This document shows, one piece after another, positions 6,528 through 52,349 of a DNA stretch of 64,000 nucleotides. The DNA is taken from positions 106,082 to 170,081 of the forward strand of contig CAWBAE010000003.1 of assembly GCA_963786745.1 (NCBI GenBank), written 5' to 3'. The notes under the pieces were generated by a model, which worked only from the letters and a program-made list of their open reading frames with translations, was not told the origin of the DNA and did no database searches. Made by a program: the position numbers and the translations under genes. This DNA is from Terriglobia bacterium. Its GTDB lineage: Bacteria > Acidobacteriota > Terriglobia > Bryobacterales > Bryobacteraceae. Within the stretch, counting starts at the first letter, position 1. Every line of letters begins with the position of its first letter.

Positions 6528-7719
6528 ATGAAAATTGACACCAAGGTAGTGCACGCCGGCGATCGAAAAGGCGATCCGAACTCGCCCGGCGCGTTCGTTC
6601 CAGTCACCGTGCCCATCTCCACCGCGGTCAGCTATTTGTACGAAAGCACCGCCAAGCTGGACCGCGTGCTGGGCCAGGAGGAAGAAGGCTTCTGCTACGC
6701 CCGTTACAGCAACCCCACCAACGCCGCGCTCGAGCAGGTATTGGCAACGCTCGAAAACGGCGCGGGAGCACTGGCCTGCGCCTCCGGAATGTCTGCCGTG
6801 CACATCGCCATACTCGCGGCTCTCACGGACCGCCGACGATCCATCGTCGCTGCCAGCGCGCTCTACGGCGCCAACACGACGCTGCTCTACAAAGTCCTCG
6901 AGCCGCTCGGCATAGAAATCCGTTCCGTGGATATTTGTGATCTCAATCAAGTCCGGCAAGCCATCGCCGAATCGAAGCCCGGTTGCGTGCTGATGGAAAC
7001 TATCTCGAATCCGCTGCTGCGCGTAGGCGCGCTGGACCAGATAGCCGAAGCTTCGCGGGCCGCCGGCGCGGCGCTGGTGGTGGACAATACCTTCGCGACA
7101 CCCATGCTGGTGCGGCCGACTCGAGCTCGGAGCGCACCTGGTGGTGCACAGCCTCACCAAGTTCCTGGCCGGGCATGGCGACGTCTTGGGCGGCGTAGTG
7201 ATCGCGGATGCGGAACACGAGCCCAGCGTCCGGTCACTCAGCCGCACGGTGGGGCCGCTGCTCGGCCCGTTTGAGAGCTACTTGACCATGCGCGGCATCA
7301 AGACCTTCGCTCTAAGAATGGAGCGCCAGTGCGCGAACGCCTGCCGTATCGCCGCCTGGCTCCGCTCGCATCCGGCCATCGCGCGGGTTCATTACCTGGC
7401 CGACCCGGCGCATCCGGACGCGGCGGTCATCCGGCGGCTGCTCCCGGAGGGCTTGCACGGGGCCATCGTCAGCTTCGAATTAAAGGACGCCGGCAAGGAA
7501 GATGTTTTCCGTTTCATGGACCGGCTGAAACTGGTGGTGCGCGGAACATCGCTCGGCGACGTCCACACGCTGATGTTGTACCCGCTCATCTCGTCGCATC
7601 GCGACCTCGCCCCGAAGCAACGTGAGCGCCTGGGCATCGGCGACGGTTTAGTGCGGTTGTGCGCGGGCATCGAGGCGGCCGAGGATATCATTGCCGATCT
7701 TGAACAGGCCTTGCAGTAA
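6528..7719 (+). pseudogene. Cys/Met-metabolism PLP-dependent enzyme (cystathionine gamma-synthase/gamma-lyase/methionine gamma-lyase family), interrupted by one +1 frameshift near 7119-7120
   Basis: ORF 6528..7274 carries ...YSNPTN...DNTFATPMLVRP. ORF 7141..7719 continues in the +1 frame with (LELGAH)LVVHSLTKFLAGHGD (PLP-lysine motif SxTK). Deleting one base in ccg-a-ctc restores RPLELGAHLVVHSLTK. Confidence 0.85.
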
Positions 7720-9231: not shown

Positions 9232-10290
9232 TTACTGCCCGCTCGACTGGATTTGCACCAAAGGCTCGGGACCTTCCGAGGGCACGGGGCTGACGATGGT
9301 CTGCGGATCGCGCCAGAAATCGACATACGAGATCTGGTGCACGCACGATACGGTGCAAAACGGAGCGCAGCCTTTCGCGGTCACATACTCGCGGCGAATA
9401 TCTTGGACGTTGTATTCGGCCAGCGCCTTGGCCGGATAGCCGCGCTGCTGCGAGCAGTAGTGAACCAGCCCGTCCTCGCACACATACAGATAGCGCGCGC
9501 CCGCGCGGCAGCGCCAGTCACTCGCGCGGCCGTAAGCGATATCGTCCTGAAAATAATTGATCTGCGAGAAATTCTTCTTCTCGAAATTCTTCATCGCCAG
9601 GAACACGTCCCGCTCCCGGTTGCCGATCGGTTTCAGTTGCCCGCCGCTGTCGTGAATGATTCCGACTGTCGAGGTGAACCCCAGCTCGATGGCCCGCTTG
9701 CCAACCACCAAAGCGTCCTCGGGATTATGAATTCCGCCGCCCAGCACCGAGTTGATATTGACGTGGAAGAGCGCGTGCTCCGACAGGATCTCGAGCTTCT
9801 TGTCGAGCACCTTGAGGCTTTTTTTCGACACCTCGTCCGGCATCACGTTGTCGATGCTGATCTGCATGTGATCCAGGCCCGCGTCGTTCAACTGGCGGAC
9901 GCGTTGCGCCGTGAGAAGATATCCGTTGGTGATCATCCCGGCCAGGATGCCCTTGCCGCGGACGTGCGTAATCAGCCGGTCGAGCTCCGGATGCAGCAGC
10001 GGCTCGCCGCCGCTGAAAGTCACGATGGTGGTGCCGAGCGCGGCCAATTGATCCAGCCGCTCCCTCATCACATCGGCCGGGACGGGTTTGGAGAAATCGT
10101 CGTATTCGTTGCAATAGGTGCACGACAGGTTGCAGCGCCGGATGGGAATGATGTGCGCCATCACCGGGTGATCCCTGGAAGCCAAACCTTTCAGGATCAT
10201 GCGCCACTCGCGCAGGCGGCGATTCAAAGCCCGGACGTCTCGTTGAAATTTGAATTGGAACGTCAGCATGCCCAGAGCAGTTATCTCCAT
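9232..10290 (-). CDS. Radical SAM protein with a Cys-rich SPASM/twitch-like C-terminal region
   Basis: 352 aa. CNLSCTYCNEY (CxxxCxxC) and a GGEPLL glycine motif. C-terminal cysteines: CRAGARYLYVCEDGLVHYC...CAPFCTVSC. Confidence 0.85.
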   Translation of the reverse strand: MEITALGMLTFQFKFQRDVRALNRRLREWRMILKGLASRDHPVMAHIIPIRRCNLSCTYCNEYDDFSKPVPADVMRERLDQLAALGTTIVTFSGGEPLLHPELDRLITHVRGKGILAGMITNGYLLTAQRVRQLNDAGLDHMQISIDNVMPDEVSKKSLKVLDKKLEILSEHALFHVNINSVLGGGIHNPEDALVVGKRAIELGFTSTVGIIHDSGGQLKPIGNRERDVFLAMKNFEKKNFSQINYFQDDIAYGRASDWRCRAGARYLYVCEDGLVHYCSQQRGYPAKALAEYNVQDIRREYVTAKGCAPFCTVSCVHQISYVDFWRDPQTIVSPVPSEGPEPLVQIQSSGQ

Positions 10291-10578
10291 TGAATCATAC
10301 TCTTCGACGGATGTGCACGCTTTTCAAAGGGAACGGTTGCCTGGGCCGTGTGAACTGCGCCGTAGAGGCCTTCAACCAACGCCGCCTGCGAGCAGTCATT
10401 TTCTTGTAACCGGAGCGTCCCGCCGCGACACCTAACAGTAGCGTGCTATTCTGAGTGCTGTCCGGAATCTTTTTTCCCATGCACAGGGCATTTGTGGTTA
10501 CCGCATTGTTAACCTCCTGGCCGGACCACCGGGTTCGCTCGTTCCAAGGATGGCCCCGGTGCCCGGTCCTTCACTCCG

Positions 10579-12840
10579 ATGTTTGAGTTTCTGTTTAAAT
10601 ACCCTCGCACCGTCTTCGCCAAAGGGACCTTTGTTTTGCTGGGCCAATGGCCGGTTTGGACCCTGATTTTATTGCTTCTGGCGGTTTTTGGCGGCTTAGG
10701 ATTTCTGATCTGGAGCCGGAGAAACGTCATCGCTCCTTCCATGCGAGGAATGCGAGCCGGCGTGGTCTGGCTGCTCGAATCCTCGCTGGTCTGCCTGTTG
10801 TTATTCCTGCTGTGGCAGCCGGCGCTCAGCATCGCGACTCTGCGGCCCCAGCAAAACATCGTCGCCGTGGTGATCGATGACAGCAAGAGCATGGCCGTTC
10901 AAGAGGACGGCGTGTCTCGAAAAGACCAGGTGGTCAAGGCGCTTAACGGCGGCCTAATCAAGAGTCTGCAGTCCAAATTTCAAGTTCGACTTTACCGCTT
11001 TGGCGACCATTTGCAGCGCCTGGAAAAATTGGAACAGCTTACCGCCAACGAACCCGCCACCAGAATCGGAGACAGCATCAAGGATGTTCTGGCGGACTCG
11101 GCCACGCTCCCAATTGGCGCGGTGGTCCTGCTGAGCGACGGCGCGGACAATTCCGGCGGCATCGATCTTGAAACCATCTCCGAGATCAAACGCCAGCGCA
11201 TTCCCATTCACACCATCGGTTTCGGCCGCGAGAAGATGGAGCACGACATCGAGCTGACGGACGTGCAATTGCCGGCGAAAACGCTCGCAAAATCGCGCCT
11301 GGAAGCGGAAGTGAGCTTTCGCCAATCCGGATTTCGAGGCGCCAAAGCCCGTCTGGTGGTGCGCGATTCCGGAAAGATTCTGGCCAGCCGCGACATTGTC
11401 CTAAAGGGAGACGGCACGTCGCAGACCGAACCCATGGTGTTCAACGCCGGAGACGCGGGAGTGAAGGACTTGGAATTCTCGGTGGATTCGCAGCCCGGCG
11501 AGGACAACAAAAACAACAATTCCGTGACGCGCGTTCTGAACGTGGACTCCGCCAAGCCGCGGATTCTCTATATGGAAGGAGAACCGCGCTGGGATTATAA
11601 GTTCCTGCGCCGCGCGGTGGAGGATGACAAGAATATCAATCTCTTCAGCATCGTCCGCACCACTCAAAACAAGATCTATACGCAGGCCGCCGATACCAGC
11701 GCCGAGTTTTTGAAGGCCGGTTTTCCCAACAAGGTGGACGATCTGTTCGGCTTTCAAGGCATCATTCTGGGCAGCGTGGAAGCCAACTATTTCACGCCCG
11801 CCCAGCAGGAATTGATCCAGCAGTTCGTGGATCGCCGGGGCGGGGGATTGCTGTTTCTGGGCGGCCGCAGCGCGCTGGCCGACGGCGGCTACGAAAAAGC
11901 GCCCTTCGACGATCTGCTGCCGGTTCGCCTGCCGAATCACAAAAACACGTTTCACCGCGATCCCGCCACGGCTGAGCTGACCTCCGCCGGCCGGGACAGC
12001 CTGATCACGCGCATTGAGGAAAATCCCGACGCGAACGTGGCGCGCTGGAAAAAGCTGCCTTACCTGATGAATTTTCAGGAAGCGGGCAATCCCAAGCCGG
12101 GCGCCACCGTCCTGGCGGAGATGAACGCCGCGGGCCACACTCTGCCGCTGCTGATCATCCAAAAATACGGACGCGGGCGCACGGCCGTGTTCGCCACCGG
12201 CGGGGACTGGCGCTGGCAAATGCTGCAGCCGGTGGAGGACATGAGTCACGAGATGTTCTGGCGGCAGATGCTCCGCTGGCTGGTGAGCGACACGCCGACG
12301 CGCGTGGTTGCATCCACGCCCCGGCCTGTGCTCGAAGACGACGGCCGGCTGCACCTGCGCGCCGAGGTTCGCGACACCACCTACCTGCCCACCAGCGACG
12401 CCACCGTGGAAGCTCGCGTAGTGGGACCGGGTGGCGCAACCGAGACCGTGGAACTGCATCCCGACCCGCTCAATCAGGGTGTTTATTCGGACGATTGGGA
12501 CGCTTCCAAGGCCGGCTCCTACGTGGCCGAAGTCACGGCCCGTCGCGGCCAGCAGGAACTCGGGCGCGACGTAGTCACCTTCCGCCGTGAGAACGGCATG
12601 GCCGAAAATTTTCACCTGGAGCAGAATCGCGAGCTGCTCGAAAAGCTTTCGTCCCAAACCGGCGGCCGCTACTATCGTCCCGATGAAGTGAGCCGCCTGG
12701 GCGAGGACATATCCTACTCGGATGCGGGAATCAGCGTGCGCGAGACCAGGGATCTTTGGGATATGCCCGCCGTCTTTTTCTTCGCCTTGCTGCTGTGCTG
12801 CGCCGAGTGGCTGCTGCGCCGCCGATGGGGTGTGGTGTGA
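10579..12840 (+). CDS. Membrane-anchored VWA-domain protein with GATase1-like (DUF1355-type) middle domain
   Basis: 753 aa. N-terminal TM helices, MIDAS-like DDSKSM, a later GIILGSVEANYF...GGGLLFLGG block, and a C-terminal TM. First gene of the Bat-like cluster. Confidence 0.8.
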   Translation: MFEFLFKYPRTVFAKGTFVLLGQWPVWTLILLLLAVFGGLGFLIWSRRNVIAPSMRGMRAGVVWLLESSLVCLLLFLLWQPALSIATLRPQQNIVAVVIDDSKSMAVQEDGVSRKDQVVKALNGGLIKSLQSKFQVRLYRFGDHLQRLEKLEQLTANEPATRIGDSIKDVLADSATLPIGAVVLLSDGADNSGGIDLETISEIKRQRIPIHTIGFGREKMEHDIELTDVQLPAKTLAKSRLEAEVSFRQSGFRGAKARLVVRDSGKILASRDIVLKGDGTSQTEPMVFNAGDAGVKDLEFSVDSQPGEDNKNNNSVTRVLNVDSAKPRILYMEGEPRWDYKFLRRAVEDDKNINLFSIVRTTQNKIYTQAADTSAEFLKAGFPNKVDDLFGFQGIILGSVEANYFTPAQQELIQQFVDRRGGGLLFLGGRSALADGGYEKAPFDDLLPVRLPNHKNTFHRDPATAELTSAGRDSLITRIEENPDANVARWKKLPYLMNFQEAGNPKPGATVLAEMNAAGHTLPLLIIQKYGRGRTAVFATGGDWRWQMLQPVEDMSHEMFWRQMLRWLVSDTPTRVVASTPRPVLEDDGRLHLRAEVRDTTYLPTSDATVEARVVGPGGATETVELHPDPLNQGVYSDDWDASKAGSYVAEVTARRGQQELGRDVVTFRRENGMAENFHLEQNRELLEKLSSQTGGRYYRPDEVSRLGEDISYSDAGISVRETRDLWDMPAVFFFALLLCCAEWLLRRRWGVV

Positions 12841-38935: not shown

Positions 38936-38941
38936 AAAACT

Positions 38942-40426
38942 ATGAAAGGTCCTATCCGTAAATCCACGGTAGTTCTAGTGGCAGTGATTGCCATGCTGGC
39001 CGGTGCGTTGATCGCGACCATGTCAGTGACGCACACGGTTCCGATGTTTATCTCCACCGCGCAGGCCGCAGTCACCGAGCAGGGGCCGCTGGTCACCTTC
39101 GCCCCGGTGGTGAAGCGCGCCATGCCCGCGGTGGTGAATATTTCGTCCTCGAAAGTGGTTAAAGAACAGGCGCAGGGCGGCAGCATGTTCGACGATCCGT
39201 TCTTCCGCCAGTTCTTCGGCGGACGGATGCCGCAGCAGCAACAGCCCCGCTCGCAGCGCGAGACCAGCCTCGGCTCAGGCGTGGTGGTGAGCCCGGACGG
39301 CTACATCATCACCAATAACCATGTCGTGGACGGCGCCAGCGACGTGAAAGTACAGTTCAGCGACCGGTCGGAATTTCCGGCCAAGATCGTCGGCACCGAT
39401 AAATACGCGGACATCGCGGTCCTGAAGGTCAACCGGACCGGCCTGACTTCCCTGCCGTTCGCGGATTCCTCCAAGGCGCAGGTGGGCGACGTCGTTCTGG
39501 CCATGGGCGAGCCTTTCGGTCTGCGGGGCACGGTGACCATGGGCATCATCAGCGCCATGGGGCGCGGGGGCTTAGGCATCGAACGGTTTGAGGATTTCAT
39601 CCAGACCGACGCTTCCATCAACCGCGGCAACTCCGGCGGAGCGCTGATCGATACGCGCGGCGACCTGGTGGGCATCAACACCGCCATCCTGTCGGGTGAA
39701 ACCGGCGGGAACCAGGGCATCGGCTTCGCGATCCCGGCCAATCTGGCCCGCAACGAAATGGACCAGATCATGAAGCATGGCAAAGTGACCCGCGGCTATA
39801 TGGGCATTCTTCCGCAAGAGCTGACGCCCGAGCTGGCGAAGCAGTTCGGCGTCCCGAATGACCATGGCGTGGCGGTGGCGCAGGTGGAACCGAATAGCCC
39901 CGCCGAAAAAGCCGGACTCAAGGTGGGCGATGTAATCACCGGCGTCAACGGGAACCCGATCGAAGACGTCAACGAGTTTCGTCTCGAGGTAGCGGGCTTC
40001 GCTCCAGCCACCACCATCCATTTGAAAGTGGTGCGCGGCAGCCAGACCCTGGACCTGCCGGTTACGCTCTCCGAGTACAACCTGGAGCGGGCCGACAGCG
40101 ATAACGGCCAGGGCAATGTTCCCGAAGGCGGCGAGAAGGGCGCGCTCCAGGGCGTAACCGTCCAGACGCTGACTCCCGATCTGCGGCGTGAAATGCAGCT
40201 GCCGGAAGGTACCGCCGGGGTGGTGATCACCAATGTGGATGCGGATTCGCCGGCGGCCCAAGCCGGGCTCTCTGAGGGCGATATGATCCTGCAGGTGAAC
40301 CGCCGGCCGGTCACTTCAGTGCAGGAGTTCAACCGGGCCGTTCGTGAGGGCGCCTCCCGGGAATCAACCTTGCTATTGGTAAAGCATGGAGCAGGAACGC
40401 TGTTTGTAGTGGTTCCTAACAAGTAA
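38942..40426 (+). CDS. htrA: Do/DegP/HtrA family periplasmic serine endoprotease with two PDZ domains
   Basis: 494 aa. TNNHVV (His), DIAVLKV (Asp), GNSGGAL (Ser) catalytic triad motifs and two PDZ segments. Confidence 0.93.
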   Translation: MKGPIRKSTVVLVAVIAMLAGALIATMSVTHTVPMFISTAQAAVTEQGPLVTFAPVVKRAMPAVVNISSSKVVKEQAQGGSMFDDPFFRQFFGGRMPQQQQPRSQRETSLGSGVVVSPDGYIITNNHVVDGASDVKVQFSDRSEFPAKIVGTDKYADIAVLKVNRTGLTSLPFADSSKAQVGDVVLAMGEPFGLRGTVTMGIISAMGRGGLGIERFEDFIQTDASINRGNSGGALIDTRGDLVGINTAILSGETGGNQGIGFAIPANLARNEMDQIMKHGKVTRGYMGILPQELTPELAKQFGVPNDHGVAVAQVEPNSPAEKAGLKVGDVITGVNGNPIEDVNEFRLEVAGFAPATTIHLKVVRGSQTLDLPVTLSEYNLERADSDNGQGNVPEGGEKGALQGVTVQTLTPDLRREMQLPEGTAGVVITNVDADSPAAQAGLSEGDMILQVNRRPVTSVQEFNRAVREGASRESTLLLVKHGAGTLFVVVPNK

Positions 40427-40445
40427 CAAAAGGTTGAGTCTTAGG

Positions 40446-40492
40446 GAAGCAGGCCCGTTGACAATAGTGCGCGCGGGCCTGCTTCTTTTTGT
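40446..40492 (+). terminator. Rho-independent terminator after htrA
   Basis: Perfect 12-bp stem gaagcaggcccg (40446-57) / cgggcctgcttc (40474-85), 16-nt loop, followed by tttttgt. Confidence 0.75.
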
Positions 40493-40572
40493 CTGTATGC
40501 GCATCTACTACTTAGGGTTGAATGATTGCAAAGAGCTAGAAACGTGCGGTTGAAGTTGGAAGGAGAAGACTA

Positions 40573-42948
40573 ATGCCCGACAAACCCGTTGTATACACGC
40601 TGCCATTGCTGCCTCTGAAGAATGCGGTGCTGTTTCCGTATCTGATGATGCCGCTTTCGGCCGGGCGGGCGGCCTCGATGGCCGCGGTGGAGGCTGCGCT
40701 GGCCTCTGAATCCAAGGAAATCGTAGTGTTTGCACAGCGCGACGCGAACGTCGAAAATCCCACCCAGGACGATCTTTATCCGATCGGCACCAAGGCGGTG
40801 ATCCGCAAGACCAACCGCGCGGCCGAGGGCCACATTGAAATGCTGGTGCTGGGAATGGAGCGGGTGACGCTGCTCAAGACAGACGGGTCCGAGCCGTTCC
40901 TGAAGGCCCGAGTCACTCCCCTGCCCCTGCCCGAAGACAAGAGCGCGGAGATCGAGGCGCTGCAAGGCGCGCTGATCGAATTGGCCGGCGAAGCCCTGAC
41001 ATTGGCCCAACCCAACTCCGGGCAAGAATTGCGGGGACTGCTTTCGGCCAACGAAGATCCGGTGCGGCTGACGTTTGTGCTTTCGTCCATGTTCAGCTTG
41101 GATGCCGAAAAAGCGCAGTCACTGCTCGAGGCGCCCACGCGTCTGGAAGCTCTGCGGATCATGCATCGATATCTGTCGCATGAGGTCCAGGTGCTGGAAC
41201 TGCGCAACAAGATCAACACCGAAGCGCGCAGCGAAATGACCAAGGAGCAGCACGACTATCTGCTGCGCCAGCAAATGCGAGCCATTCAACAAGAGCTGGG
41301 CGAGAAGGGGGCTGAGGGCGCGGAAGCCGATCAGCTGCGCGAACGGCTGCAGAAGGCGGACCTTCCCGAGGAAGTTTTGAAGGAAGCCACGCGCGAATTG
41401 GACCGGATGGCCAAGATGCCTCCCGGAGCGCCGGACTACAACGTCATCCGGACCTATCTCGACTACGTGCTGGAGTTGCCGTGGCGCAAGAGCACCGAGG
41501 GTTCGCTCGACATCGCTTACGCCCGGCAGGTGCTGGATGAAGACCATTTCGGGCTGAAGGACGTGAAGGGCCGGATCCTGGAGCAACTGGGCGTTCTGAA
41601 ATTGAACCCCAATGCGAAGGCGCCCATCCTTTGCTTCGTCGGACCTCCCGGCGTGGGCAAGACTTCGCTGGGCCAGTCCATTGCGCGGGCGCTGAACCGC
41701 AAGTTCGAGCGTTTGAGCCTGGGCGGGTTACATGACGAAGCCGAATTGCGCGGGCATCGCCGGACTTATATCGGGGCGCTGCCGGGCCGGGTGCTGCAGG
41801 CTATGCGGCGCGCCGGCACCAACAATCCAGTGCTGATGCTGGACGAAGTGGACAAACTCGGCCACGATTTCCGGGGCGACCCGGCGCACGCTTTGCTCGA
41901 GATCCTGGATCCGGAGCAGAACAAAACGTTCCGCGACAATTATCTCGACTTGCCGTTCGATCTGTCGAAGGTGCTATTCATCACGACCGCGAACGCGCTG
42001 GATACTATTCCGAGGCCGCTGCTGGATCGCATGGAGGTTCTGCGGCTGGCGGGCTATAGCGAAGAAGAAAAACTCGCGATCGCGAAACGCTATCTCATTC
42101 CGAAACAGCTCAAGGAAACCGGGGTTAGCGAGGCGCAGTGCACGCTCCCGGACGCGACGGTGAAGAAAATCATATCCGGGTATACGCGTGAAGCCGGCTT
42201 GAGGGGCCTCGATCGGGCCATTGGCCGCGTGGCGCGAAAAGTTGCGCTGCGCGTGGCGGAGGGTAACGAGGGCGCTTGCACCGTTGCGCCCGACGATCTG
42301 GCCGACATGCTGGGGCCGGAAATCTTCAATCAAGAAGAAGCCCGGCGCGAGTTGCCTCCGGGCGTCGCCACGGGATTGGCTTGGACCGAAACCGGCGGAG
42401 ACGTGCTCTATATCGAGGCGACGCTGCTGCCGGACGGCAAGGGTTTGACGCTGACCGGCCAGCTCGGCGAGGTGATGCAGGAGTCCGCGAAGGCGGCACA
42501 GAGCTACATCTGGTCCCACGCTGGGAGCTTCGACATCGACCCGAAGCTGTTCAAGAGCGCCGGCGTGCACGTGCACGTTCCTGCGGGCGCGATCCCGAAG
42601 GACGGACCTTCGGCCGGAGTGACCATGGCGACGGCTTTAACGTCGCTCTATACCAAGCTTCCGGCGCGCAGCGACGTCGCGATGACGGGCGAAGTGACGC
42701 TCACCGGCCTGGTGCTGCCCATCGGCGGCATCAAGGAGAAAGTTCTGGCGGCGCGGCGCGCCGGAATCCGGACCATCATCATGCCGAAGCACAACCAAAA
42801 AGACCTGCGTGAGTTGCCCGACGACGTCCGCAAGGAGATGGAATTCATCTTCGCCGAGCGCGTCGAAGAGGTGCTGCGCACGGCGATTCCGGGATTGGGC
42901 GAGCGCATGAACTCGGCCAAGACGCAGTCGATTGATCACGCGGCTTAA
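40573..42948 (+). CDS. lon: ATP-dependent endopeptidase Lon
   Basis: 791 aa. LON N-domain, GPPGVGKTS Walker A, and the protease site [11 protein letters not shown]. Confidence 0.97.
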
Positions 42949-43340
42949 AGCCGTATATAAGTTACGAGGGCCGCGGCCGCGAGCCGGCGTTCGGAATCGC
43001 GGATCTCGACGCGGCCCACGCACAGATGTTCTCCCACTCGCAGGATGTGGGATCGCGCGGTTGCGATGCCATCCGTAATCGGGCGCAGGTAATTGATCTT
43101 GAGGTCGGTGGTGGTCACGGGACGCCGGCCTCCGAAATGGCTGGCCAGGCCGATGCCCATGGCGGCGTCGGCCATGGTCGCGAGCACTCCTCCGTGTATC
43201 CCTCCCGAGCCGTTCTTCGTTTTTTCATCCACAGCGCAGCGAATGGTGACGCCGTCTTTGTGTACGCGCATAATCCGGATGCCGAGGTACTTATTGAAGG
43301 GCAGGTTGCCGGAAAGCCGGCGCAGTTCGCGAAGGGTCAA
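42945..43340 (-). CDS. PaaI-family hotdog-fold thioesterase
   Basis: 131 aa. NGSGGIHGGVLATMADAAMG motif of the PaaI/YdiI family. Confidence 0.85.
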   Translation of the reverse strand: MTLRELRRLSGNLPFNKYLGIRIMRVHKDGVTIRCAVDEKTKNGSGGIHGGVLATMADAAMGIGLASHFGGRRPVTTTDLKINYLRPITDGIATARSHILRVGEHLCVGRVEIRDSERRLAAAALVTYIRL

Positions 43341-43365
43341 GGAACGATAATTGTATCATCGAGGG

Positions 43366-44100
43366 GTGAAGCGATTAAGTTTCTTCGCTGTGCTCGCGCT
43401 TGGACTCAATGGACAAGACCAAAGCTCGCCGGAGAACTTCGTCCGAATGCATCAGGCGTGGGGCTCCAAAGCAAGTACGCCAAACACTTCGTTGGTTATC
43501 AAGGAATCCGAACGATCGGGCCAGGCGATCAAATTCAGGTTGATTGCCAGCGGCGTGCCCAAGGACAGCGCGTACACGATTCTGGCGTGGCCGGTTACGC
43601 AGAAGGGACCGAGCGAGGTTTTGAAGGGCGTGACCTTGGACGCCTCCGGCCTGGCAATATGCGCCGGCGTGCCGGGAACCTGCGGTTCAGCGGACAAGCC
43701 CAACGATCCGATCGACCTAGTCTTGGCACCTATCCCGGGTGAGCCTGTCCGGATCGCCCTTATTTCGGCGGATGGAGCAACAAAGGTCTTCTCTAAATTG
43801 GTCCCTATTCCTTTGAGCGGTGATGACCGAGGCTGCCGGATTGAAGCGACCCTGTTGACCCCCGGCGCTGAGCTGGTCCTGATCGAAGGCTCGGGTTTCC
43901 CACCCAATAGCGATGTGTCGATGGAATCCGAGTCGGAAGGCGAGCATCACAGTGGAAAGGCCAAGACCGATGTAGACGGCCGATACGCAAGCGCTATTCT
44001 CCCGTATCGACAAGGCGTTGCGCACGGCAGTGCAAAGGTCAATCTGAAGGCAGCCAAATGTGCGCCATCGCTGACCTTCGCGTGGGGCCGGCGCAACTAG
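43366..44100 (+). CDS. Secreted hypothetical protein
   Basis: The ORF opens at 43351 (TTG). GTG at 43366 gives VKRLSFFAVLALGLNG, a signal peptide. No recognisable domain. Confidence 0.55.
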   Translation: MKRLSFFAVLALGLNGQDQSSPENFVRMHQAWGSKASTPNTSLVIKESERSGQAIKFRLIASGVPKDSAYTILAWPVTQKGPSEVLKGVTLDASGLAICAGVPGTCGSADKPNDPIDLVLAPIPGEPVRIALISADGATKVFSKLVPIPLSGDDRGCRIEATLLTPGAELVLIEGSGFPPNSDVSMESESEGEHHSGKAKTDVDGRYASAILPYRQGVAHGSAKVNLKAAKCAPSLTFAWGRRN

Positions 44101-44112
44101 ACGCGCGTGGTA

Positions 44113-45711
44113 TTATTTCACGGCGATTAACGCTCCGGGGGGCGTACTCGAGCCCGCGTAGGTGCAGGTCACCAGGTTGTCGCCGCTGGGCGCCGCTGTC
44201 GGGACGACCACGTTCAGCTGATAGAGCCCCGGCGATATCAAATTCGCGCTGGATACCGTCGCCGCCAACGTTCCGATGGTACACACCGGAGTCGGCACAA
44301 TGGCGCCTGTTTGCGTGACAGATCCATTCACCAGCGCGTTCGAGGGCAGCCCGAAGCCGATCGCGTAAAGCAAAATCGTCTCGCCGGCTTGAGCGGGCGC
44401 TGAGCTTCCTGGAAAAAGAGTGGCGGGGGCCAGCAGACTGTAATCGGCGTGCTCCGCTGCCACGTGCCCGGGCCCATCAAATAATAGGAACGACGGCGAC
44501 ACGGCCTGCATGTTCACGGTGAGAGGCGCGCTCGAAACCGAGCCGTTCGTGACCACGACTTCGACCAGGCCGACCGTGCTGTCAAGGGGAGTGAGCAAAT
44601 TGATCTGATCGCTGGCGCAAGACGTACTAGTGACGGCGCTGCAAAAAAACCAGATGAAGGCCGGCTTGCCGTTGACAGTGACGCTGACGTTGTTCAGCGA
44701 GGTGGGTAAATGGCCCTGCGCCAACGCGGGAGAGCTGCTCCAGAAAGCGCCGCCCGCGGGAGTGTTGGCGGGCACAAGGTTAGCGCCAAAGATTTCGAGC
44801 CACGTGTTCTGCGCGATGGAAGATGGGCCGTAAGCGGTGGTGACCGCGGTGATTAACGGAGACCCGGCTGCCGGCTGGGTAATAGTGCCTGTGCCGGTGA
44901 GCGTGAACGTGCTGGCACCGGGGCTGACCGCCAGGGTGATGGCCAGTGAACCGCCGGCTCCGGTGAACATCCCCGTGCCCCCAGTAATCGTGCAAGGAAA
45001 ATTGACCGGCGGGTTGTTGATGTCCACCACGGAGAAAAAGGAAGCCACGAAGCTATCGTTGGCGTTGAAGGAGAACGTCACTTCACCTTGCACCATGCCG
45101 GGCGCGCCGTTAACGCCCTTTTGCCCGATACCGCTGAAATTTATCGCTACGTTTCCAAACGGAGCCACGGTACCGGTGGAGCTGGCTTGCAATGTGCCGC
45201 TCCCGGCGCTGGCTACGGACGCCGTGCCTCGAAAGCCGGTCAGGGTGATGGCCGTGCTGGTTTGGCCCACCGTGATGTTTCCCGAACCGCTCAACGTGAA
45301 AGTCCCGACACTGGAGGCGCTGGCCGCAAACTGGAACTTATAAGTGATCGATCCGGTGGCTCCGCTGTATGCTCCCGTGCCTCCAGCGATCGGCCCGGAC
45401 GAATTGAGCGTGGTCATTTTGCCGATTGCTTGAGGCGTTACGGTAACGTTGAAGCTATCTTGCCGGTTGAGGAAGAACGTCAAAACGCCCTGCGTCACGC
45501 CGGTCTGCTGGCTCTGTGAACCGCTGAAGCTAACGGCCGCGGTTCCGATTGGGTTTACGGTTCCGGTTCCGTTGAGCGTGACCGGTCTAACGACCGTCTG
45601 TGTCGCAACCATACCGGTAACGTTGGCAACGGTGATGGGCGTCGTGGTCTGCGCGAAAGCAGCCGATATTGCGAATAGCGCGGCGGCAAACCGGACGGCG
45701 AAGGGGTTCAT
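44113..45711 (-). CDS. Secreted repeat protein with Solibacter-type C-terminal domain (TIGR03437-like)
   Basis: Likely start MNPFAVRFAAALFAISAAFA at 45711; the ORF extension to 45807 is probably spurious. The C-terminus SDQINLLTPLD...GLYQLNVVVPTAAPSGDN matches the pattern seen in the 7741..9210 product. Confidence 0.8.
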   Translation of the reverse strand: MNPFAVRFAAALFAISAAFAQTTTPITVANVTGMVATQTVVRPVTLNGTGTVNPIGTAAVSFSGSQSQQTGVTQGVLTFFLNRQDSFNVTVTPQAIGKMTTLNSSGPIAGGTGAYSGATGSITYKFQFAASASSVGTFTLSGSGNITVGQTSTAITLTGFRGTASVASAGSGTLQASSTGTVAPFGNVAINFSGIGQKGVNGAPGMVQGEVTFSFNANDSFVASFFSVVDINNPPVNFPCTITGGTGMFTGAGGSLAITLAVSPGASTFTLTGTGTITQPAAGSPLITAVTTAYGPSSIAQNTWLEIFGANLVPANTPAGGAFWSSSPALAQGHLPTSLNNVSVTVNGKPAFIWFFCSAVTSTSCASDQINLLTPLDSTVGLVEVVVTNGSVSSAPLTVNMQAVSPSFLLFDGPGHVAAEHADYSLLAPATLFPGSSAPAQAGETILLYAIGFGLPSNALVNGSVTQTGAIVPTPVCTIGTLAATVSSANLISPGLYQLNVVVPTAAPSGDNLVTCTYAGSSTPPGALIAVK

Positions 45712-45722
45712 ATGTCTAGCAG

Positions 45723-45779
45723 GGATTGTATCATCGAGGAATGCATCTACAGGACAAGGTGGTAGTGGTGACCGGGGGC
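45723..45779 (+). repeat. Left copy of a perfect 57-bp direct repeat (duplicated SDR 5' end)
   Basis: ggattgtatcatcgaggaatgcatctacaggacaaggtggtagtggtgaccgggggc is identical to 47484..47540. Confidence 0.95.
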
Positions 45780-45806
45780 TGACGCTGGCGAGGGGACAAA
45801 GGGCCA

Positions 45807-46214
45807 ATGGCTTCTGACAAATATGATCCTGACCAATGGGCTTTCATGAATCTACCTGCGACGCAGGAGAAGATTCGCCGCGACTTGCGTAGTGCCGTTG
45901 AACGTTTCCTTGATACGGCACCCGCGGGATCCGTCCTCTTCCGTACGTCGATAATCCTCGGAATCCTGCGGGACTATTTCCGGCGTCGGCTTGCACGTAA
46001 GGATTCTGATGCTTACGACAAGGCCACGGCCGAAGAGGTACTCGCCGGATTGAGCTTCGCCGGTACGCGGATAAGAGCGGACGAAGATGTTGAAAAGTGG
46101 CTCGCGGAAATAATGGCGGCTCCTCCCATAACGGATGAGGAGTTCGAAACACGGTTGAAGGAGTGGGAGGCATTAGACGCGCGGCTGAAGACGGAGGGCA
46201 AAAAGGCCACGTAA
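45807..46214 (+). CDS. Hypothetical 135-aa acidic/helical protein, first gene of the cassette
   Basis: Only long ORF in this interval. No recognisable motif. Begins 25 nt after the left repeat. Confidence 0.5.
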   Translation: MASDKYDPDQWAFMNLPATQEKIRRDLRSAVERFLDTAPAGSVLFRTSIILGILRDYFRRRLARKDSDAYDKATAEEVLAGLSFAGTRIRADEDVEKWLAEIMAAPPITDEEFETRLKEWEALDARLKTEGKKAT

Positions 46215-46314
46215 GAGAAGCCTTGTCTGGCAGGAGGATTTGCGAACGAGGTTATCGAGACGCCGCAACCGGTGCCACTCAGCGTGGTGGTTAGGGCGAT
46301 GTCAGTCTTAAGTC

Positions 46315-47388
46315 ATGGACATGAGAACCGTATACGTCCTCGGAGCGGGCGCCTCTCATGGCGAGTCTTTAGTTGGGCAGTACCCGGATGCACGACCACA
46401 CAGTCCGCCTTTAACCACCGGATTCTTCGACGGTGCGCTGCTGAGTACGCTCGGATACACGCGAGCGCAGGACGATCTCAAAGATCTCATTTCTCATATC
46501 AAGAGCACCAAGCTTTGGGGGGATGCTTTCGGCGAAGACCGGTGGAAGTCCCTCGATCTTGAAGAAGTGTTCACTTCCCTCGAGGTGGAGCGAGAGTTTC
46601 AGAACCCGGAGAGCGATGATGGAGCCCGCCTCTTGCTACTGCGGAATTCGCTGGTTCGCCACATCCGTCGCGTTCTCGGGCTCTGCACGTTGGGAGCCCT
46701 CGGCGAGTATTTCCATTTGCTCGCCGATCGGCTTACGCCTGACGATTCCGTTGTGACCTTCAATTGGGACCTCCTGATGGACCAAGAGTTCATTCACCAG
46801 GGAAGGGCCTTCCGCCAATACAACAACTTCCTGCACCGGGTTCCCTTGCCGCCCTCCGAGAACTGCTTGTCCCTGGTCATCCAGGGTGAGGGGCTATTCC
46901 TGAAGCTTCACGGCTCCCTGAATTGGTTTCGCTGTGGCAACCACAGCTGCCAGGCCAGCGAAACGATCACCTTCTTCTCCAACCCTCGGCATTGCCTCGA
47001 ATGGAACGCGGGCACCGAAAACGCGACGTGTTGGCAGTGCGGAAGCGTGCTGAACCAAGTAATAATTCCACCGCTTCTTCGCAAGCCGATAACGGAGGAT
47101 CCAATTATCCGCTCCGTTTGGGGCCTAGCCAAGGAGAGGCTGATGGACGCGTCGAGGGTAATCGTGGTGGGTTTCTCGGCTGCGCCGACAGACTTCTATA
47201 CAACCTGGCTTTTAAGATCTACAGTCGGAACGCGAGACAACGTTGCGGTTGAAATAATCAACCCGTGTAATGAAGAGGGCCATTCGGGCCACGCCGAGTT
47301 CAAGAGACGCATGGATTCAATTTTCCCGCGGGGATACGGCTCTCGGCTCCTGCAGTTCTCGCAAATCACCGACGCCCTCGGCAGCTAA
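46315..47388 (+). CDS. SIR2/sirtuin-like (DHS-like NAD-binding fold) protein
   Basis: 357 aa. VYVLGAGASHGES (NAD-binding GAGxS), VVTFNWDLLMDQ (the TxNxD position of sirtuins/SIR2_2), FLKLHGSLNWFRCGNHSC...CWQCG (catalytic-His motif followed by a CxxxxC...CxxC Zn-ribbon-like pair), VIVVGFSAAPTD (the GxS strand). Confidence 0.7.
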   Translation: MDMRTVYVLGAGASHGESLVGQYPDARPHSPPLTTGFFDGALLSTLGYTRAQDDLKDLISHIKSTKLWGDAFGEDRWKSLDLEEVFTSLEVEREFQNPESDDGARLLLLRNSLVRHIRRVLGLCTLGALGEYFHLLADRLTPDDSVVTFNWDLLMDQEFIHQGRAFRQYNNFLHRVPLPPSENCLSLVIQGEGLFLKLHGSLNWFRCGNHSCQASETITFFSNPRHCLEWNAGTENATCWQCGSVLNQVIIPPLLRKPITEDPIIRSVWGLAKERLMDASRVIVVGFSAAPTDFYTTWLLRSTVGTRDNVAVEIINPCNEEGHSGHAEFKRRMDSIFPRGYGSRLLQFSQITDALGS

Positions 47389-47483
47389 ATAGTGGGTTCT
47401 AACGGTTAGGCTCAGGAAACATCATCACCCTTACGTCGCGGATAGTCCGTGCCTTCAAAGCGACAACCGGGCGTGACTGATAA

Positions 47484-47540
47484 GGATTGTATCATCGAGG
47501 AATGCATCTACAGGACAAGGTGGTAGTGGTGACCGGGGGC
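47484..47540 (+). repeat. Right copy of the perfect 57-bp direct repeat (native SDR promoter-proximal region and first 13 codons)
   Basis: Identical to 45723..45779. Contains the SDR ATG (47502). Confidence 0.95.
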
Positions 47541-48275
47541 GCGAACGGAATTGGCCGGGCGCTGTGCCGGCGATTCGCGTCAGAGGGCGCGAAAGCGGTG
47601 ATCGTGGCCGATCTCGCAGGCGACGCGGCGCGCAAGGTGGCGGCGGAGATCGAGGGACACGACGTAATGTGCGACGTATCCAGCGAATCGGATGTGCAGG
47701 CGCTGGTGGATTTCGTCTTGAAAAAGTACGGGCACATCGACCTGTTCTGTTCGAATGCCGGCATCGCGATCCATGGCGATCAGTGCGTCGAGAATCGGGA
47801 CTGGCAGCGTATCTGGGAGATCAACGTGATGGCCCATATTTACGCCGCTCGCGCCGTTCTGCCATCCATGCTGGCGCGCGGCCATGGTTATCTGTTGCAG
47901 ACCGTCTCGGCGGCTGGGCTCCTGACTTCCATCGGAGGCGCACCCTACGCCGTCACGAAACACGCGGCGCTCGGATTCGCCGAATGGCTTTCGGTCACCT
48001 ACGGCGACCGAGGCATCAAGGTGTCGGTGCTTTGTCCGCAAGGCGTCAAGACCAGCATGCTGGAGAGAGCCGACGCGGATGGCTTAGGCTTTTTGACCGA
48101 AGGCGCGCTGGAGCCCGGACAAGTGGCCGAGACCGTGGTACGAGGCCTGGAACATGAGCACTTCCTGATTCTTCCGCACCCCGAAGTGCTCGATTACCTG
48201 CGGCGCAAGACCGCCGACTATGACCGCTGGTTGCGAGGCATGCGTCGTTTGCAAGCCAGCATGCAGAACTCGTAA
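47502..48275 (+). CDS. Short-chain dehydrogenase/reductase (classical SDR)
   Basis: [20 protein letters not shown] (TGxxxGxG), NAG, YAVTKHA (YxxxK). The ORF track opens it at TTG 47487, but ATG 47502 is more plausible. Confidence 0.9.
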
Positions 48276-48295
48276 AGCGAAGTGGTCCGCGCGGC

Positions 48296-49858
48296 TTAGC
48301 CCGCGGCCCCCTGCACGCCGAACTTTTCCCGCAGAATATTTTTCTGAATTTTCCCGCTTCCGCCTTTGGGCAGCGCATCGGTGAAGACCGCCGAGGTGGG
48401 GCACTTGAAATGCGTGAGCCGGTCGCGGCACCAGGCGATCAATTCGGATTCGGCCACGGCCGATCCGTCGCGCAGCACCACTACCGCGCGGATGGCTTCA
48501 CCCCAGGTTGGATCCGGAATTCCGATCACGGCGGCTTCGAGCACCGCGGGATGGGAACACAGCATGGATTCCACTTCCGGTGAATACACGTTCTCGCTTC
48601 CGGTCTTGATCATGTCCTTCTTTCGATCCAGGATATAGAGGAAACCCTCTTCGTCGAAAGCGCCGTAGTCGCCGGTGTGCATCCAGCCGCCGCGCAAAAC
48701 TTCGGCGTTGATCTCCGGCCGTTTCCAATAGCCCTTCATGACATTGGGGCCGCGCGCGATCACCTCGCCGGCTTGGCCGACGGGAACATCCCGGTCGTAG
48801 TTGTCCACCACGCGCACCTCGACGCCCATGACCGGCTTGCCGGCGGATTTGACGGGCGCGAAATCCCGGTCGCTGTTGTCGAAGCGATGGTCTTCATGCT
48901 GCAGCCGGGTGAGAAGCGGGCTCACTTCGGTCATTCCATAGCCTTGTACAAACTCGCAGTCGAGCGTCTGCATGGCCTGTTTAAGTAGCGGCAGGGGCAT
49001 CGGCGATGCGCCGTAGATCAAACGCGTGACGCTGGAAAGATCGTAGTTGGAGAATTCGGGATGGTTCAACACCATGTTGATCATGGTGGGGACCAGGATC
49101 AGCTCGGTGACTCGATAGCGTTCGATGGCGCGCATGACGCCTACCGGATCGAAGCTCGCGAGGAAGCAATGCGTAGCGCCGCACATGGTGGATGCGTAGA
49201 TGGCGCCCGCATCGGCCAAATGAAACATGGGCGCGGCGTGCAGCCATTTTCCGTCCCGGAACAGCCCGCCCGGAGGGAGCAGCGAGTGAACCGCGTTGGA
49301 GTACAAATTTCGATGCGTGAGCATGGCGCCCTTCGGCCCGCCGGTGGTGCCGCTGGTGTAGAACAAGCCCGCGATGTCGTTCTCGTGAGGTTCGGGAAAT
49401 TGGGTCGTACGGTGGCTGTCGTCCGGCTCCAGATGGTTCCAATCCACCAGGCCCTCGGGACAGGCGCTCGCTCCCACGTAAATGAAGCGCTTCAAGCCGG
49501 GCACGGCCTTGCGGATCTCGGGAACCAGCGGCGCGAATCTATCGTCCACGAAAAGCGTCTCGCTTTCCGAATCCGATAGCGTGAAGTTGATCTCGTTAAT
49601 ATGCCAGCGCGTGTTGAGCGGGACTACCATCACGTTTGCCATGGCGGTGGAGTAATACAGCTCCAGGTATTCAGGGCAATTCAGCATGAGCACAGCGACA
49701 CGCTCCCCCGGAACCACGCCCAGCGTCGCAAGCTTACGGGCGGAGTTTTCGACCAGCTGATAAAACTCACGGTAATTGAGCTGGCGGCCCTCGTAGTCGA
49801 TCGCGAGCTTGAGCCCATAGCCATCCCGGGCTCGCCGAAGACAATAGTTAACGGTCAT
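48296..49858 (-). CDS. Long-chain fatty-acid--CoA ligase (AMP-binding family)
   Basis: 520 aa. YTSGTTGGPKG AMP-binding motif, TGD, and C-terminal GKIQK. Confidence 0.92.
   Translation of the reverse strand: MTVNYCLRRARDGYGLKLAIDYEGRQLNYREFYQLVENSARKLATLGVVPGERVAVLMLNCPEYLELYYSTAMANVMVVPLNTRWHINEINFTLSDSESETLFVDDRFAPLVPEIRKAVPGLKRFIYVGASACPEGLVDWNHLEPDDSHRTTQFPEPHENDIAGLFYTSGTTGGPKGAMLTHRNLYSNAVHSLLPPGGLFRDGKWLHAAPMFHLADAGAIYASTMCGATHCFLASFDPVGVMRAIERYRVTELILVPTMINMVLNHPEFSNYDLSSVTRLIYGASPMPLPLLKQAMQTLDCEFVQGYGMTEVSPLLTRLQHEDHRFDNSDRDFAPVKSAGKPVMGVEVRVVDNYDRDVPVGQAGEVIARGPNVMKGYWKRPEINAEVLRGGWMHTGDYGAFDEEGFLYILDRKKDMIKTGSENVYSPEVESMLCSHPAVLEAAVIGIPDPTWGEAIRAVVVLRDGSAVAESELIAWCRDRLTHFKCPTSAVFTDALPKGGSGKIQKNILREKFGVQGAAG

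Positions 49859-50901: not shown

Positions 50902-52349
<1,448 letters not shown>

Follow-up and report, generated by a model that had tools for sequence, protein, structure and literature searches.

A recently acquired two-gene islet between perfect copies of a putative divergent promoter and gene start in a Bryobacteraceae genome

How can a small pair of genes enter a bacterial chromosome and leave its target gene intact when no recombination machinery is to be seen? The question is raised by a locus in a 64,000-nucleotide stretch from a Terriglobia bacterium of the family Bryobacteraceae (contig CAWBAE010000003.1 of assembly GCA_963786745.1, positions 106,082 to 170,081), which as a whole is referred to here as the window. 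At positions 45723–47540 two identical sequences of 57 nt, each containing the start of a short-chain dehydrogenase (SDR) gene, enclose a two-gene cassette of 1,704 bp. An initial annotation, made from the sequence alone, had taken this arrangement for inserted DNA with a repeat that duplicates the 5′ end of its target and leaves the SDR gene intact. Comparison with related genomes supports this view, and it places the cassette as the second of two serial insertions into a very short, putative divergent promoter.

The two 57-mers lie in direct orientation on the plus strand, copy B to the left of the cassette (45723–45779) and copy C to the right (47484–47540). Direct comparison gave 100% identity at an offset of 1761 bp, as first annotated, and they are the sole direct repeat of at least 24 nt with such geometry in the whole 64-kb window (14-nt seed). 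The observation of repeat and cassette is real and statistically outstanding. Copy C contains the probable working promoter and the start region of the SDR gene (47502..48275, plus strand; Pfam adh_short, E=5e-44), whose orthologs with 74–78% identity occur in a conserved gene order. ATG 47502 and codons 1–13 fall within this repeat copy, in agreement with the initial annotation, and the gene is intact. Copy B carries the same promoter motif, the SDR start codon (45741) and codons 1–13, and reading on from there yields a stub open reading frame (ORF) at 45741..45782 on the plus strand, in which the 13 duplicated SDR codons are closed by TGA. This stop (45780–45782) is the first codon of the inserted DNA and stands in frame directly after the stub. 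The chance of a stop as the very first codon past the stub is about 3/64, and the immediate TGA gives the junction, as far as it can be read from the letters, an adapted and ordered look.

Between the repeats the cassette (45780..47483, plus strand) carries only two ORFs, both on the same strand: 45807..46214, encoding 135 amino acids, and 46315..47388, encoding 357. Its GC content of 56.2% compares with 60.5% for the window and falls in the lowest 0.6% of equal-sized sliding windows, so that the lower GC noted at first sight is borne out together with the gene count. The GC content at third codon positions (GC3) is 0.60 and 0.68 in the two ORFs in comparison to 0.73–0.78 in the flanking genes. 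Since the repeats are 100% identical and both GC and GC3 are low, the cassette is shown to be a recently acquired accessory islet of foreign DNA.

An arrangement of this kind could in principle be produced by the assembly itself, through a misjoin in the metagenome graph or a loop traversal at the shared 57-mer. The repeat length is indeed near a common assembler k-mer size (55), and Logan unitig L002 (1,764 bp) consists of exactly the cassette plus 30 nt of repeat on either side; it ends 30 nt into the repeat because the graph branches at a repeat longer than k, so branching does occur there. An exact-protein look-up, however, revealed two contigs of another assembly, GCA_052915905.1, which cross the two junctions separately and span the full 57-mer. 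The contig L174 matches window positions 38184–46042 at 100% identity (7.9 kb) and reads across the left 57-mer into the cassette, and the contig L001 links the cassette, across the right 57-mer, to the SDR gene and a further 6 kb behind it. Joins of the cassette to 30 nt of repeat at its end or ends were also found in Logan unitigs (k=31) of five sequencing runs, and a graph loop would still require real molecules that link both cassette ends to the 57-mer. An assembly artefact, one of the conditions named in the initial annotation as refuting its interpretation, is thus very improbable. Exact-protein look-ups with the SDR and TIGR03437 proteins returned cassette-bearing contigs only, with no empty site among them.

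The ancestral state of the site was obtained from relatives, the comparison that the initial annotation had proposed. A scan of species-representative genomes with the SDR protein gave metagenome-assembled genomes of Bryobacteraceae/Bryobacterales at 74–78% identity. In six of them (L005, L009, L033, L006, L016 and L004) the gene order is Lon, thioesterase (minus strand), SDR (plus strand), AMP-ligase, CoA-transferase and MaoC, and none of the six has the cassette. Three retain a compact site with a single motif copy: the start codons of the thioesterase and SDR genes are only 24 (L005), 23 (L009) and 36 bp (L033) apart, compared with 4,161 bp in the window, and the spacer is filled by one motif, CATTGTATCATCGA[G/A]GAATG. 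In the window the corresponding gene for a hotdog-fold thioesterase lies at 42945..43340 on the minus strand (Pfam 4HBT, E=5e-18). It adjoins the SDR ortholog in these same three genomes and is the ancestral divergent neighbour of the SDR gene.

Beside the thioesterase start we found a third copy of the motif, which the first inspection had overlooked. Copy A (43350..43364, plus strand; ATTGTATCATCGAGG) is an exact 15-nt match to the left part of both 57-mers. Since ancestrally the thioesterase and SDR genes adjoin each other and only one motif copy separates them, all of 43365–47483 has to be regarded as inserted, in two serial blocks. The older block (43365..45722) holds a gene for a secreted protein with signal peptide and GTG start (43366..44100, plus strand) and a gene for a TIGR03437-domain protein (44113..45711, minus strand; E=1.6e-38), and it is absent between thioesterase and SDR in the relatives. 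The two genes are convergent and each begins beside a motif copy. The gene at 44113..45711 had been taken for the native neighbour, which did not hold up; it belongs to the older insertion, which is bounded by the 15-nt motif copy. Between copies A and B the similarity stops sharply at the 15-mer and the flanks beyond are not significantly similar, so that a longer older duplication was rejected.

From left to right, the thioesterase gene is therefore followed by copy A (15 nt), the older block, copy B with its 57 nt, the cassette, copy C of equal length and the SDR gene. The left boundary of the three direct copies is common to within 2 nt, and the newest pair, the perfect 57-mers, adjoins the target gene. 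Taken together, the cassette is shown to be the second of two serial insertions within an ancestral spacer of 23–36 bp. Its target, first described as a coding 5′ end, is better described as a probable compact bidirectional promoter plus gene start, the duplication of the gene start itself being correct. The reading of the locus as an ancient, fixed native arrangement, in which an old local duplication and not an insertion produced the repeats, can draw on the near-identical strain represented by L001 and L174, which is arranged alike. Against it stand the six related genomes without the cassette, three of them with the compact single-copy site, the 100% identity of the repeats and the composition of the cassette, which deviates from the rest of the window; its probability is next to negligible. 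Assembly artefact and ancient native duplication are both effectively excluded.

The thioesterase–SDR spacer is an insertion hotspot. Three relatives have other, unrelated inserts in it, of ~1.1 kb in L004, of ~0.55 kb in L016 and, with a large palindrome, of ~0.2 kb in L006. A motif duplication around the L004 insert was considered and is not significant (p = 0.15). In L006 the spacer (9800–9975) contains a long inverted repeat, GCGCACGCACACTTGCGTGCCG ... CGGCACGCAAGTGTGCGTGCGC, which could be an insert at the hotspot resembling a miniature inverted-repeat transposable element (MITE) or a hairpin. At the other end of the thioesterase gene, the convergent lon and thioesterase genes of the window overlap by 4 nt at their stop codons (42945–42948); the relatives have 0.3–2.5 kb of variable DNA at this junction, which in L009 is flanked by palindromic repeats (8161–8233 and 9507–9574) similar to repetitive extragenic palindromic (REP) elements.

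How could a control region of 24 bp take up two inserts without loss of its neighbours? The motif ATTGTATCAT contains TATCAT on the plus and TACAAT on the minus strand, also in copy A, and may represent two back-to-back −10 boxes, that is, a bidirectional promoter. On the SDR side the succession TAT[C/G]AT, 6 nt and ATG is conserved in all six related loci. GTG 43366, the start of the first gene of the older block, lies 6 nt from the TATCAT of copy A, as the SDR ATG does from its own box; for the TIGR03437 gene the distance between its ATG and the minus-strand box in copy B is 13 nt. A consensus scan marked a promoter-like site, TTCATA-16-TATCAT, at 45707–45734, over copy B. Because the plus-strand start codon follows 6 nt past the box, a leaderless mRNA from this box is suggested. 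With boxes placed back to back, each motif copy could serve the genes on both sides. Copy A would then serve the thioesterase gene and the secreted-protein gene, and copy B the TIGR03437 gene and, via the 13-codon stub with its TGA, both cassette genes, while copy C would keep the SDR gene fully intact with its promoter. Two inserts in the 24-bp control region would be tolerated because the promoter was duplicated each time, with one 15-nt core apparently serving six transcription units.

The larger cassette gene (46315..47388, plus strand) had been called SIR2-like, and the sequence-based support for this is weak: against Pfam and NCBIfam nothing exceeded the threshold (SIR2_2, E=0.07), and PADLOC gave weak matches (Aga_SIR2, E=7e-4). 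The predicted structure is more informative. The AlphaFold model of the 357-aa protein has a high pLDDT of 89.6, and Foldseek returned as best match the SIR2 protein of the SIR2/HerA anti-phage complex (8wld, E=6e-10), followed by sirtuins; a profile of the family also matches entries of the PDB named 'SIR2 family protein'. Among 274 homologs, mostly from soil metagenomes, an alignment of 32 sequences revealed as invariant G10, A11, G12 and S14 (GAGxS), N150, H199 (in K-L-H-G-S) and the cysteines C207, C212, C239 and C242, with D152 nearly invariant. By its predicted Rossmann fold and conserved residues the protein is a stand-alone member of the SIR2 (sirtuin-like) superfamily; its NAD-site signature is intact, and it has a zinc ribbon with four cysteines.

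The smaller gene, here orf135 (45807..46214, plus strand), encodes a small all-helical protein of an orphan family without a match in Pfam, NCBIfam, PHROG or PADLOC, and its model is of low confidence (pLDDT 60). Only 7 homologs were found, and their surroundings differ from that of orf135; one belongs to an operon, where it follows a DUF6036 gene, with a PIN module beside it. In none of the fetched loci does an orf135 homolog stand beside a SIR2-like gene. A conserved pair of orf135 and SIR2 was accordingly rejected, as the homologs elsewhere are never adjacent. In the population orf135 is allelically mosaic: L001 differs from the window at 24 of the 87 nt in 46002–46088 and is identical afterwards, and its allele resembles the rest of the family more than the window allele does. 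Logan unitig L003 begins at 45940, which indicates another graph branch there, and the second assembly breaks within the mosaic patch (45940–46088). A further patch of divergence from L001, otherwise nearly identical to the window, was noted at 51256–52300, where about 1 kb over a lactate/malate dehydrogenase gene is ~9% diverged; it looks like a recombination tract from another strain.

Taken together, the cargo is probably a NAD-consuming SIR2 enzyme of defence or toxin type, with orf135 as its partner. The closest relatives of the SIR2-like gene (72–75% identity) have the coding sequence in common with the window, and not the flanks. The 121 scanned neighbours of SIR2-like homologs include guaA, PIN and NurA genes and a few transposases. 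PIN was matched by 6 of these neighbours and GMP-synthase domains by 6–8, and NurA-domain genes adjoin three other homologs; in L149, L090, L091, L133 and L126 a clade of SIR2-like genes directly follows a PIN-domain (VapC-like) gene beside guaA. A phage or plasmid origin of the SIR2 gene was rejected, as no phage match was obtained and only matches of 26–27% on three plasmids and relatives of 23–28% in viral contigs were found. A distant homolog (29%) is encoded on L160 (1–5442), a metagenome contig of 5.4 kb, which is probably a small circular element because its ends are identical over 116 nt.

In accordance with the initial annotation, no integrase or transposase was found among the 40 ORFs of the window, and the cassette has no terminal inverted repeats, the best terminal alignment being no better than those of shuffled sequences. 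The remainder of the window resembles core chromosome, with tgt, cysS, clpB, htrA, lon and others. One gene in it, for a PLP enzyme of Cys/Met metabolism, is split into 6528..7274 (profile positions 1–184) and the overlapping 7141..7719 (193–381), within 6528–7719, as either a frameshifted pseudogene or a sequencing error. The 3′ untranslated region of the cassette (47386–47485) and the 57-mer fold no better than shuffled sequences on either strand (z = +0.4 to +2.0), and since both lack secondary structure, attC-like and REP-like ends are excluded. No tRNA or tmRNA gene occurs in the window, no Rfam match in 42500–48500 and no GTTRRRY core at the cassette boundaries.

Several known classes of elements could be set aside on these grounds. 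Integron cassettes are similar in being small promoterless units of one or two genes, often of defence or toxin type, that are read from an outside upstream promoter. They differ by the attC palindrome, the GTTRRRY core and intI/attI, and by insertion without target duplication. None of these signs is present in the islet, and an integron cassette was rejected for lack of an attC-like structure, core sites, integrase/attI or another repeat family in the window. Transposons, insertion sequences (IS) and MITEs share with the islet an insertion between direct target duplications. Known target duplications of prokaryotic transposons measure 2–15 bp, in contrast to 57 in the islet, which moreover lacks terminal inverted repeats, a transposase and ends conserved among relatives; this class was rejected as well. 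An island targeting a tRNA or tmRNA gene was rejected because the window has neither such a gene nor an integrase, and a known RNA element because of the missing Rfam match. With the SIR2 effectors of anti-phage systems (SIR2-HerA, ThsA of Thoeris, DSR and SIR2-pAgo) the 357-aa protein shares the SIR2 fold, GAGxS, the Asn/Asp pair and the catalytic His, as well as the location of its gene in a variable, horizontally acquired islet. Unlike them it has no HerA, ThsB/TIR, pAgo or large DSR-type extension at its side; the orphan 135-aa protein is its only partner, so the partner that marks each of these known systems is missing.

Closer parallels are offered by integrative and conjugative elements (ICEs). 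Those of the SXT/R391 family insert in the 5′ end of prfC and restore the gene; they are about 100 kb in size, encode their own tyrosine integrase and use an attachment identity of ~17 bp. The islet resembles them in its location in the 5′ end of a protein gene, with functional start and promoter kept. It differs in that it encodes nothing for integration and that its repeat is a perfect 57-bp copy of host sequence. Still more similar are the cis-mobilizable elements (CIMEs), islands that retain their attachment repeats attL and attR, and their tandem accretion, described for the ICESt1/ICESt3 family of Streptococcus thermophilus (PMC5704250), which have no integrase or transfer genes of their own, leave the target gene intact and form several tandem repeat copies with the newest unit beside the gene. 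In the same way the islet has perfect 57-nt repeats with the SDR promoter and codons 1–13 and no integration or transfer genes. CIMEs are, in contrast, recognised as decayed ICEs or integrative and mobilizable elements (IMEs) with a known cognate integrase-bearing element, and none was found for the islet. The islet is also unlike them in its 1.7 kb, in its target, which is a promoter and 5′ end rather than a 3′ end or tRNA gene, in its host, an uncultured acidobacterium, and in that no remnant mobile-element genes occur in the cassette. Its tiny size, promoter-duplicating target, host and complete lack of mobile-element remnants make it unusual among integrase-less repeat-flanked islets.

Does this architecture occur elsewhere? 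In 68 SIR2-like loci we compared the upstream and downstream flanks of the gene, 1 kb each. Clear bracketing direct repeats were found only in L084 and in the syntenic pair L110/L111, and no inverted control scored as high; L139 gave a 160-nt repeat in the flank comparison. At the scan threshold about 1 locus is expected in comparison to 2 seen, so that flanking repeats as a general property of the SIR2 family were rejected. In L110 (5833–7247) and L111 (330–1758) a SIR2-like homolog of ~41% identity lies between repeats of ~100 nt with a hairpin, CGCAGAGC...GCTCTGCG, and the repeat begins at the stop codon of the upstream gene. The two loci are homologous (92%) precisely up to the right repeat, and again beyond a non-homologous slot of ~1.6 kb. 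A partial copy of the hairpin stands upstream of the SIR2-like homolog in L104 (404–430).

A blind scan of 1.72 Mb of fetched loci gave 12 repeat pairs, a background of ~7 per Mb, and most of them are hairpin, REP or terminator elements. Only three are non-hairpin duplications of a gene end: the window and two other soil loci, L123 and L084. In L123 (10622–11814) a direct repeat of 55–58 nt, 98–100% identical and 1135 bp apart, duplicates the stop and the final 17 codons of an SDR-family gene (9895..10677) and encloses 1.08 kb with frameshifted TIR_2-domain gene fragments (pseudogenes). In architecture this locus equals the window, site and cargo being unrelated. In L084 (9892–11312) a SIR2 homolog of 75% identity, the closest relative on a long contig, lies between 48-nt repeats of 90% identity. 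What is duplicated there is the 3′-terminal part of a peptidase M28 gene, with 57 nt if the stretch is counted up to the stop codon, and a 72-aa ORF terminates in the second copy. Of nine differences between these copies, five are of synonymous type, including TAA to TAG, which hints at an origin of one copy in the gene of another lineage and less at neutral decay. Among 110 peptidase homologs the C-terminal tail proved too variable to trace the origin of the second copy. No recombinase was found in the 12.6 kb of L123 or within 10 kb in L084. Three unrelated gene ends with repeats of ~48–58 nt around small SIR2 or TIR cargo are suggestive of a recurring mechanism; this pattern, found after the fact, is a lead and not proof.

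For the origin of the islet we tentatively favour, with a confidence that falls a little short of even, an integrase-less CIME-like islet in tandem accretion at the hotspot, joined by conservative recombination via the 57-mer. A circular form of the islet with one 57-mer would recombine conservatively with the chromosomal site in an attachment (att)-type or Campbell-type event. The recombinase might be supplied in trans by an element elsewhere, or the host's RecA might act on the perfectly identical 57 bp. With both repeats in place, the islet could be excised by recombination of one 57-mer with the other, and via this stretch it could enter relatives whose site is vacant. We rank this explanation first because the copies form a tandem array around a shared core, the newest unit adjoins the gene and the gene end is restored, and because of the ordered junction with its immediate stop and the pattern in L084; tandem accretion as described likewise places the newest element at that att site in which the gene end lies (PMC5704250). 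The recombination mechanism, which we infer, is the least certain part of it.

Several observations weigh against recombination of a circle. No integrase with a matching attP was found in the 64-kb window, in 10 kb of L084 or in 12.6 kb of L123, and Phage_integrase is absent from the 25 most often matched families across the 121 scanned neighbours of SIR2-like homologs. If an integrase targeted the motif, some integrase-bearing occupants would be expected at the hotspot, and the inserts in L004, L016 and L006 (~0.2–1.1 kb) are too small for a full-length integrase plus cargo. The cassette was found at this site in no other species, and its two genes elsewhere occur separately and without shared flanking DNA, so there is no sign of a site-adapted element family. 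RecA is inefficient on 57 bp and cannot explain the first duplication. The repeat of the older block measures only 15 nt and is sharply delimited, and under att-type or homologous recombination three independent gene-end repeats of ~48–58 nt would be a coincidence. The k=31 unitigs, finally, fit an integrated copy and a circle plus empty site equally.

The main rival, which we consider rather unlikely, is a one-off duplication-insertion accident, in which the divergent promoter broke and foreign DNA was taken up there. A staggered double-strand break followed by fill-in and end joining, or a stalled replication fork that switched its template to the foreign DNA and returned 57 bp behind, would produce the long target duplication in one step, and selection would keep only events that leave each flanking gene a promoter. 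Such a filter would explain why both duplications start just left of ATTGTA, and a fragile, heavily transcribed site under this filter is consistent with the unrelated inserts in the same tiny region across lineages. The lack of a recombinase, conserved element ends, terminal inverted repeats or hairpins is in accordance with an accident, as are the repeat that consists purely of local target sequence and the occurrence of the cargo genes elsewhere without common flanks; the different repeat length of the older event (15 nt) is expected of non-templated accidents. In contrast, the immediate in-frame TGA and the exact start-codon spacing of the older block are more ordered than random capture would suggest, and the codon-respecting differences between the L084 repeats point towards an imported copy of a gene end. 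We know of no documented bacterial route of gene gain by long staggered breaks or by template switching onto foreign DNA. In the literature on long target duplications, on homology-facilitated illegitimate recombination with duplication and on 55–58-bp repeats nothing directly comparable was found.

A quite different and, in our judgement, decidedly improbable origin is a ruler-type machinery acting in trans, which would place small promoterless cassettes at gene ends and always duplicate ~57 bp. Its two cuts would be measured in the way that Cas1-Cas2 duplicates the repeat of a CRISPR array, and its cargo would often be NAD-degrading defence-type genes. This idea is prompted by the window (57 nt, SDR 5′ end, SIR2), L123 (55–58 nt, TIR) and L084 (48, up to 57 nt, SIR2), all three without a recombinase nearby and with one repeat edge at the outer boundary of the gene. 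These are, however, three cases only, assembled post hoc; the repeat length in L084 is ambiguous (48–57 nt), and the older block of the window has a 15-nt repeat. Bracketing of SIR2 genes is not enriched (about 1 locus expected, 2 seen), most of the 68 loci being without a flanking repeat, and repeats of ~55 bp are ordinary for att sites of integrative elements (e.g. SGI3). As a wider conjecture of low probability, soil Acidobacteria and possibly other soil bacteria would harbour a class of recombinase-free SIR2/TIR cassettes of 1–2 kb that are integrated in trans, at the extreme ends of housekeeping genes, by a ruler of ~57 bp. If true, this would be a mode of integration not described for bacterial mobile DNA, and in cases with a promoter in the duplicated stretch its spare copy would drive the cassette.

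Whichever route brought it there, the islet represents a clean, datable example of gene gain in which a compact putative promoter was copied, so that new genes would be switched on and the neighbours left unharmed. The thioesterase–SDR spacer is a hotspot at which genes are gained although no mobile-element machinery is to be seen, and it is in 'machinery-free' hotspots of this kind that most of the accessory and defence genes of bacteria are located. If the ~57-bp repeats at the three gene ends reflect one mechanism, the locus would give access to a novel mode by which small defence genes move.

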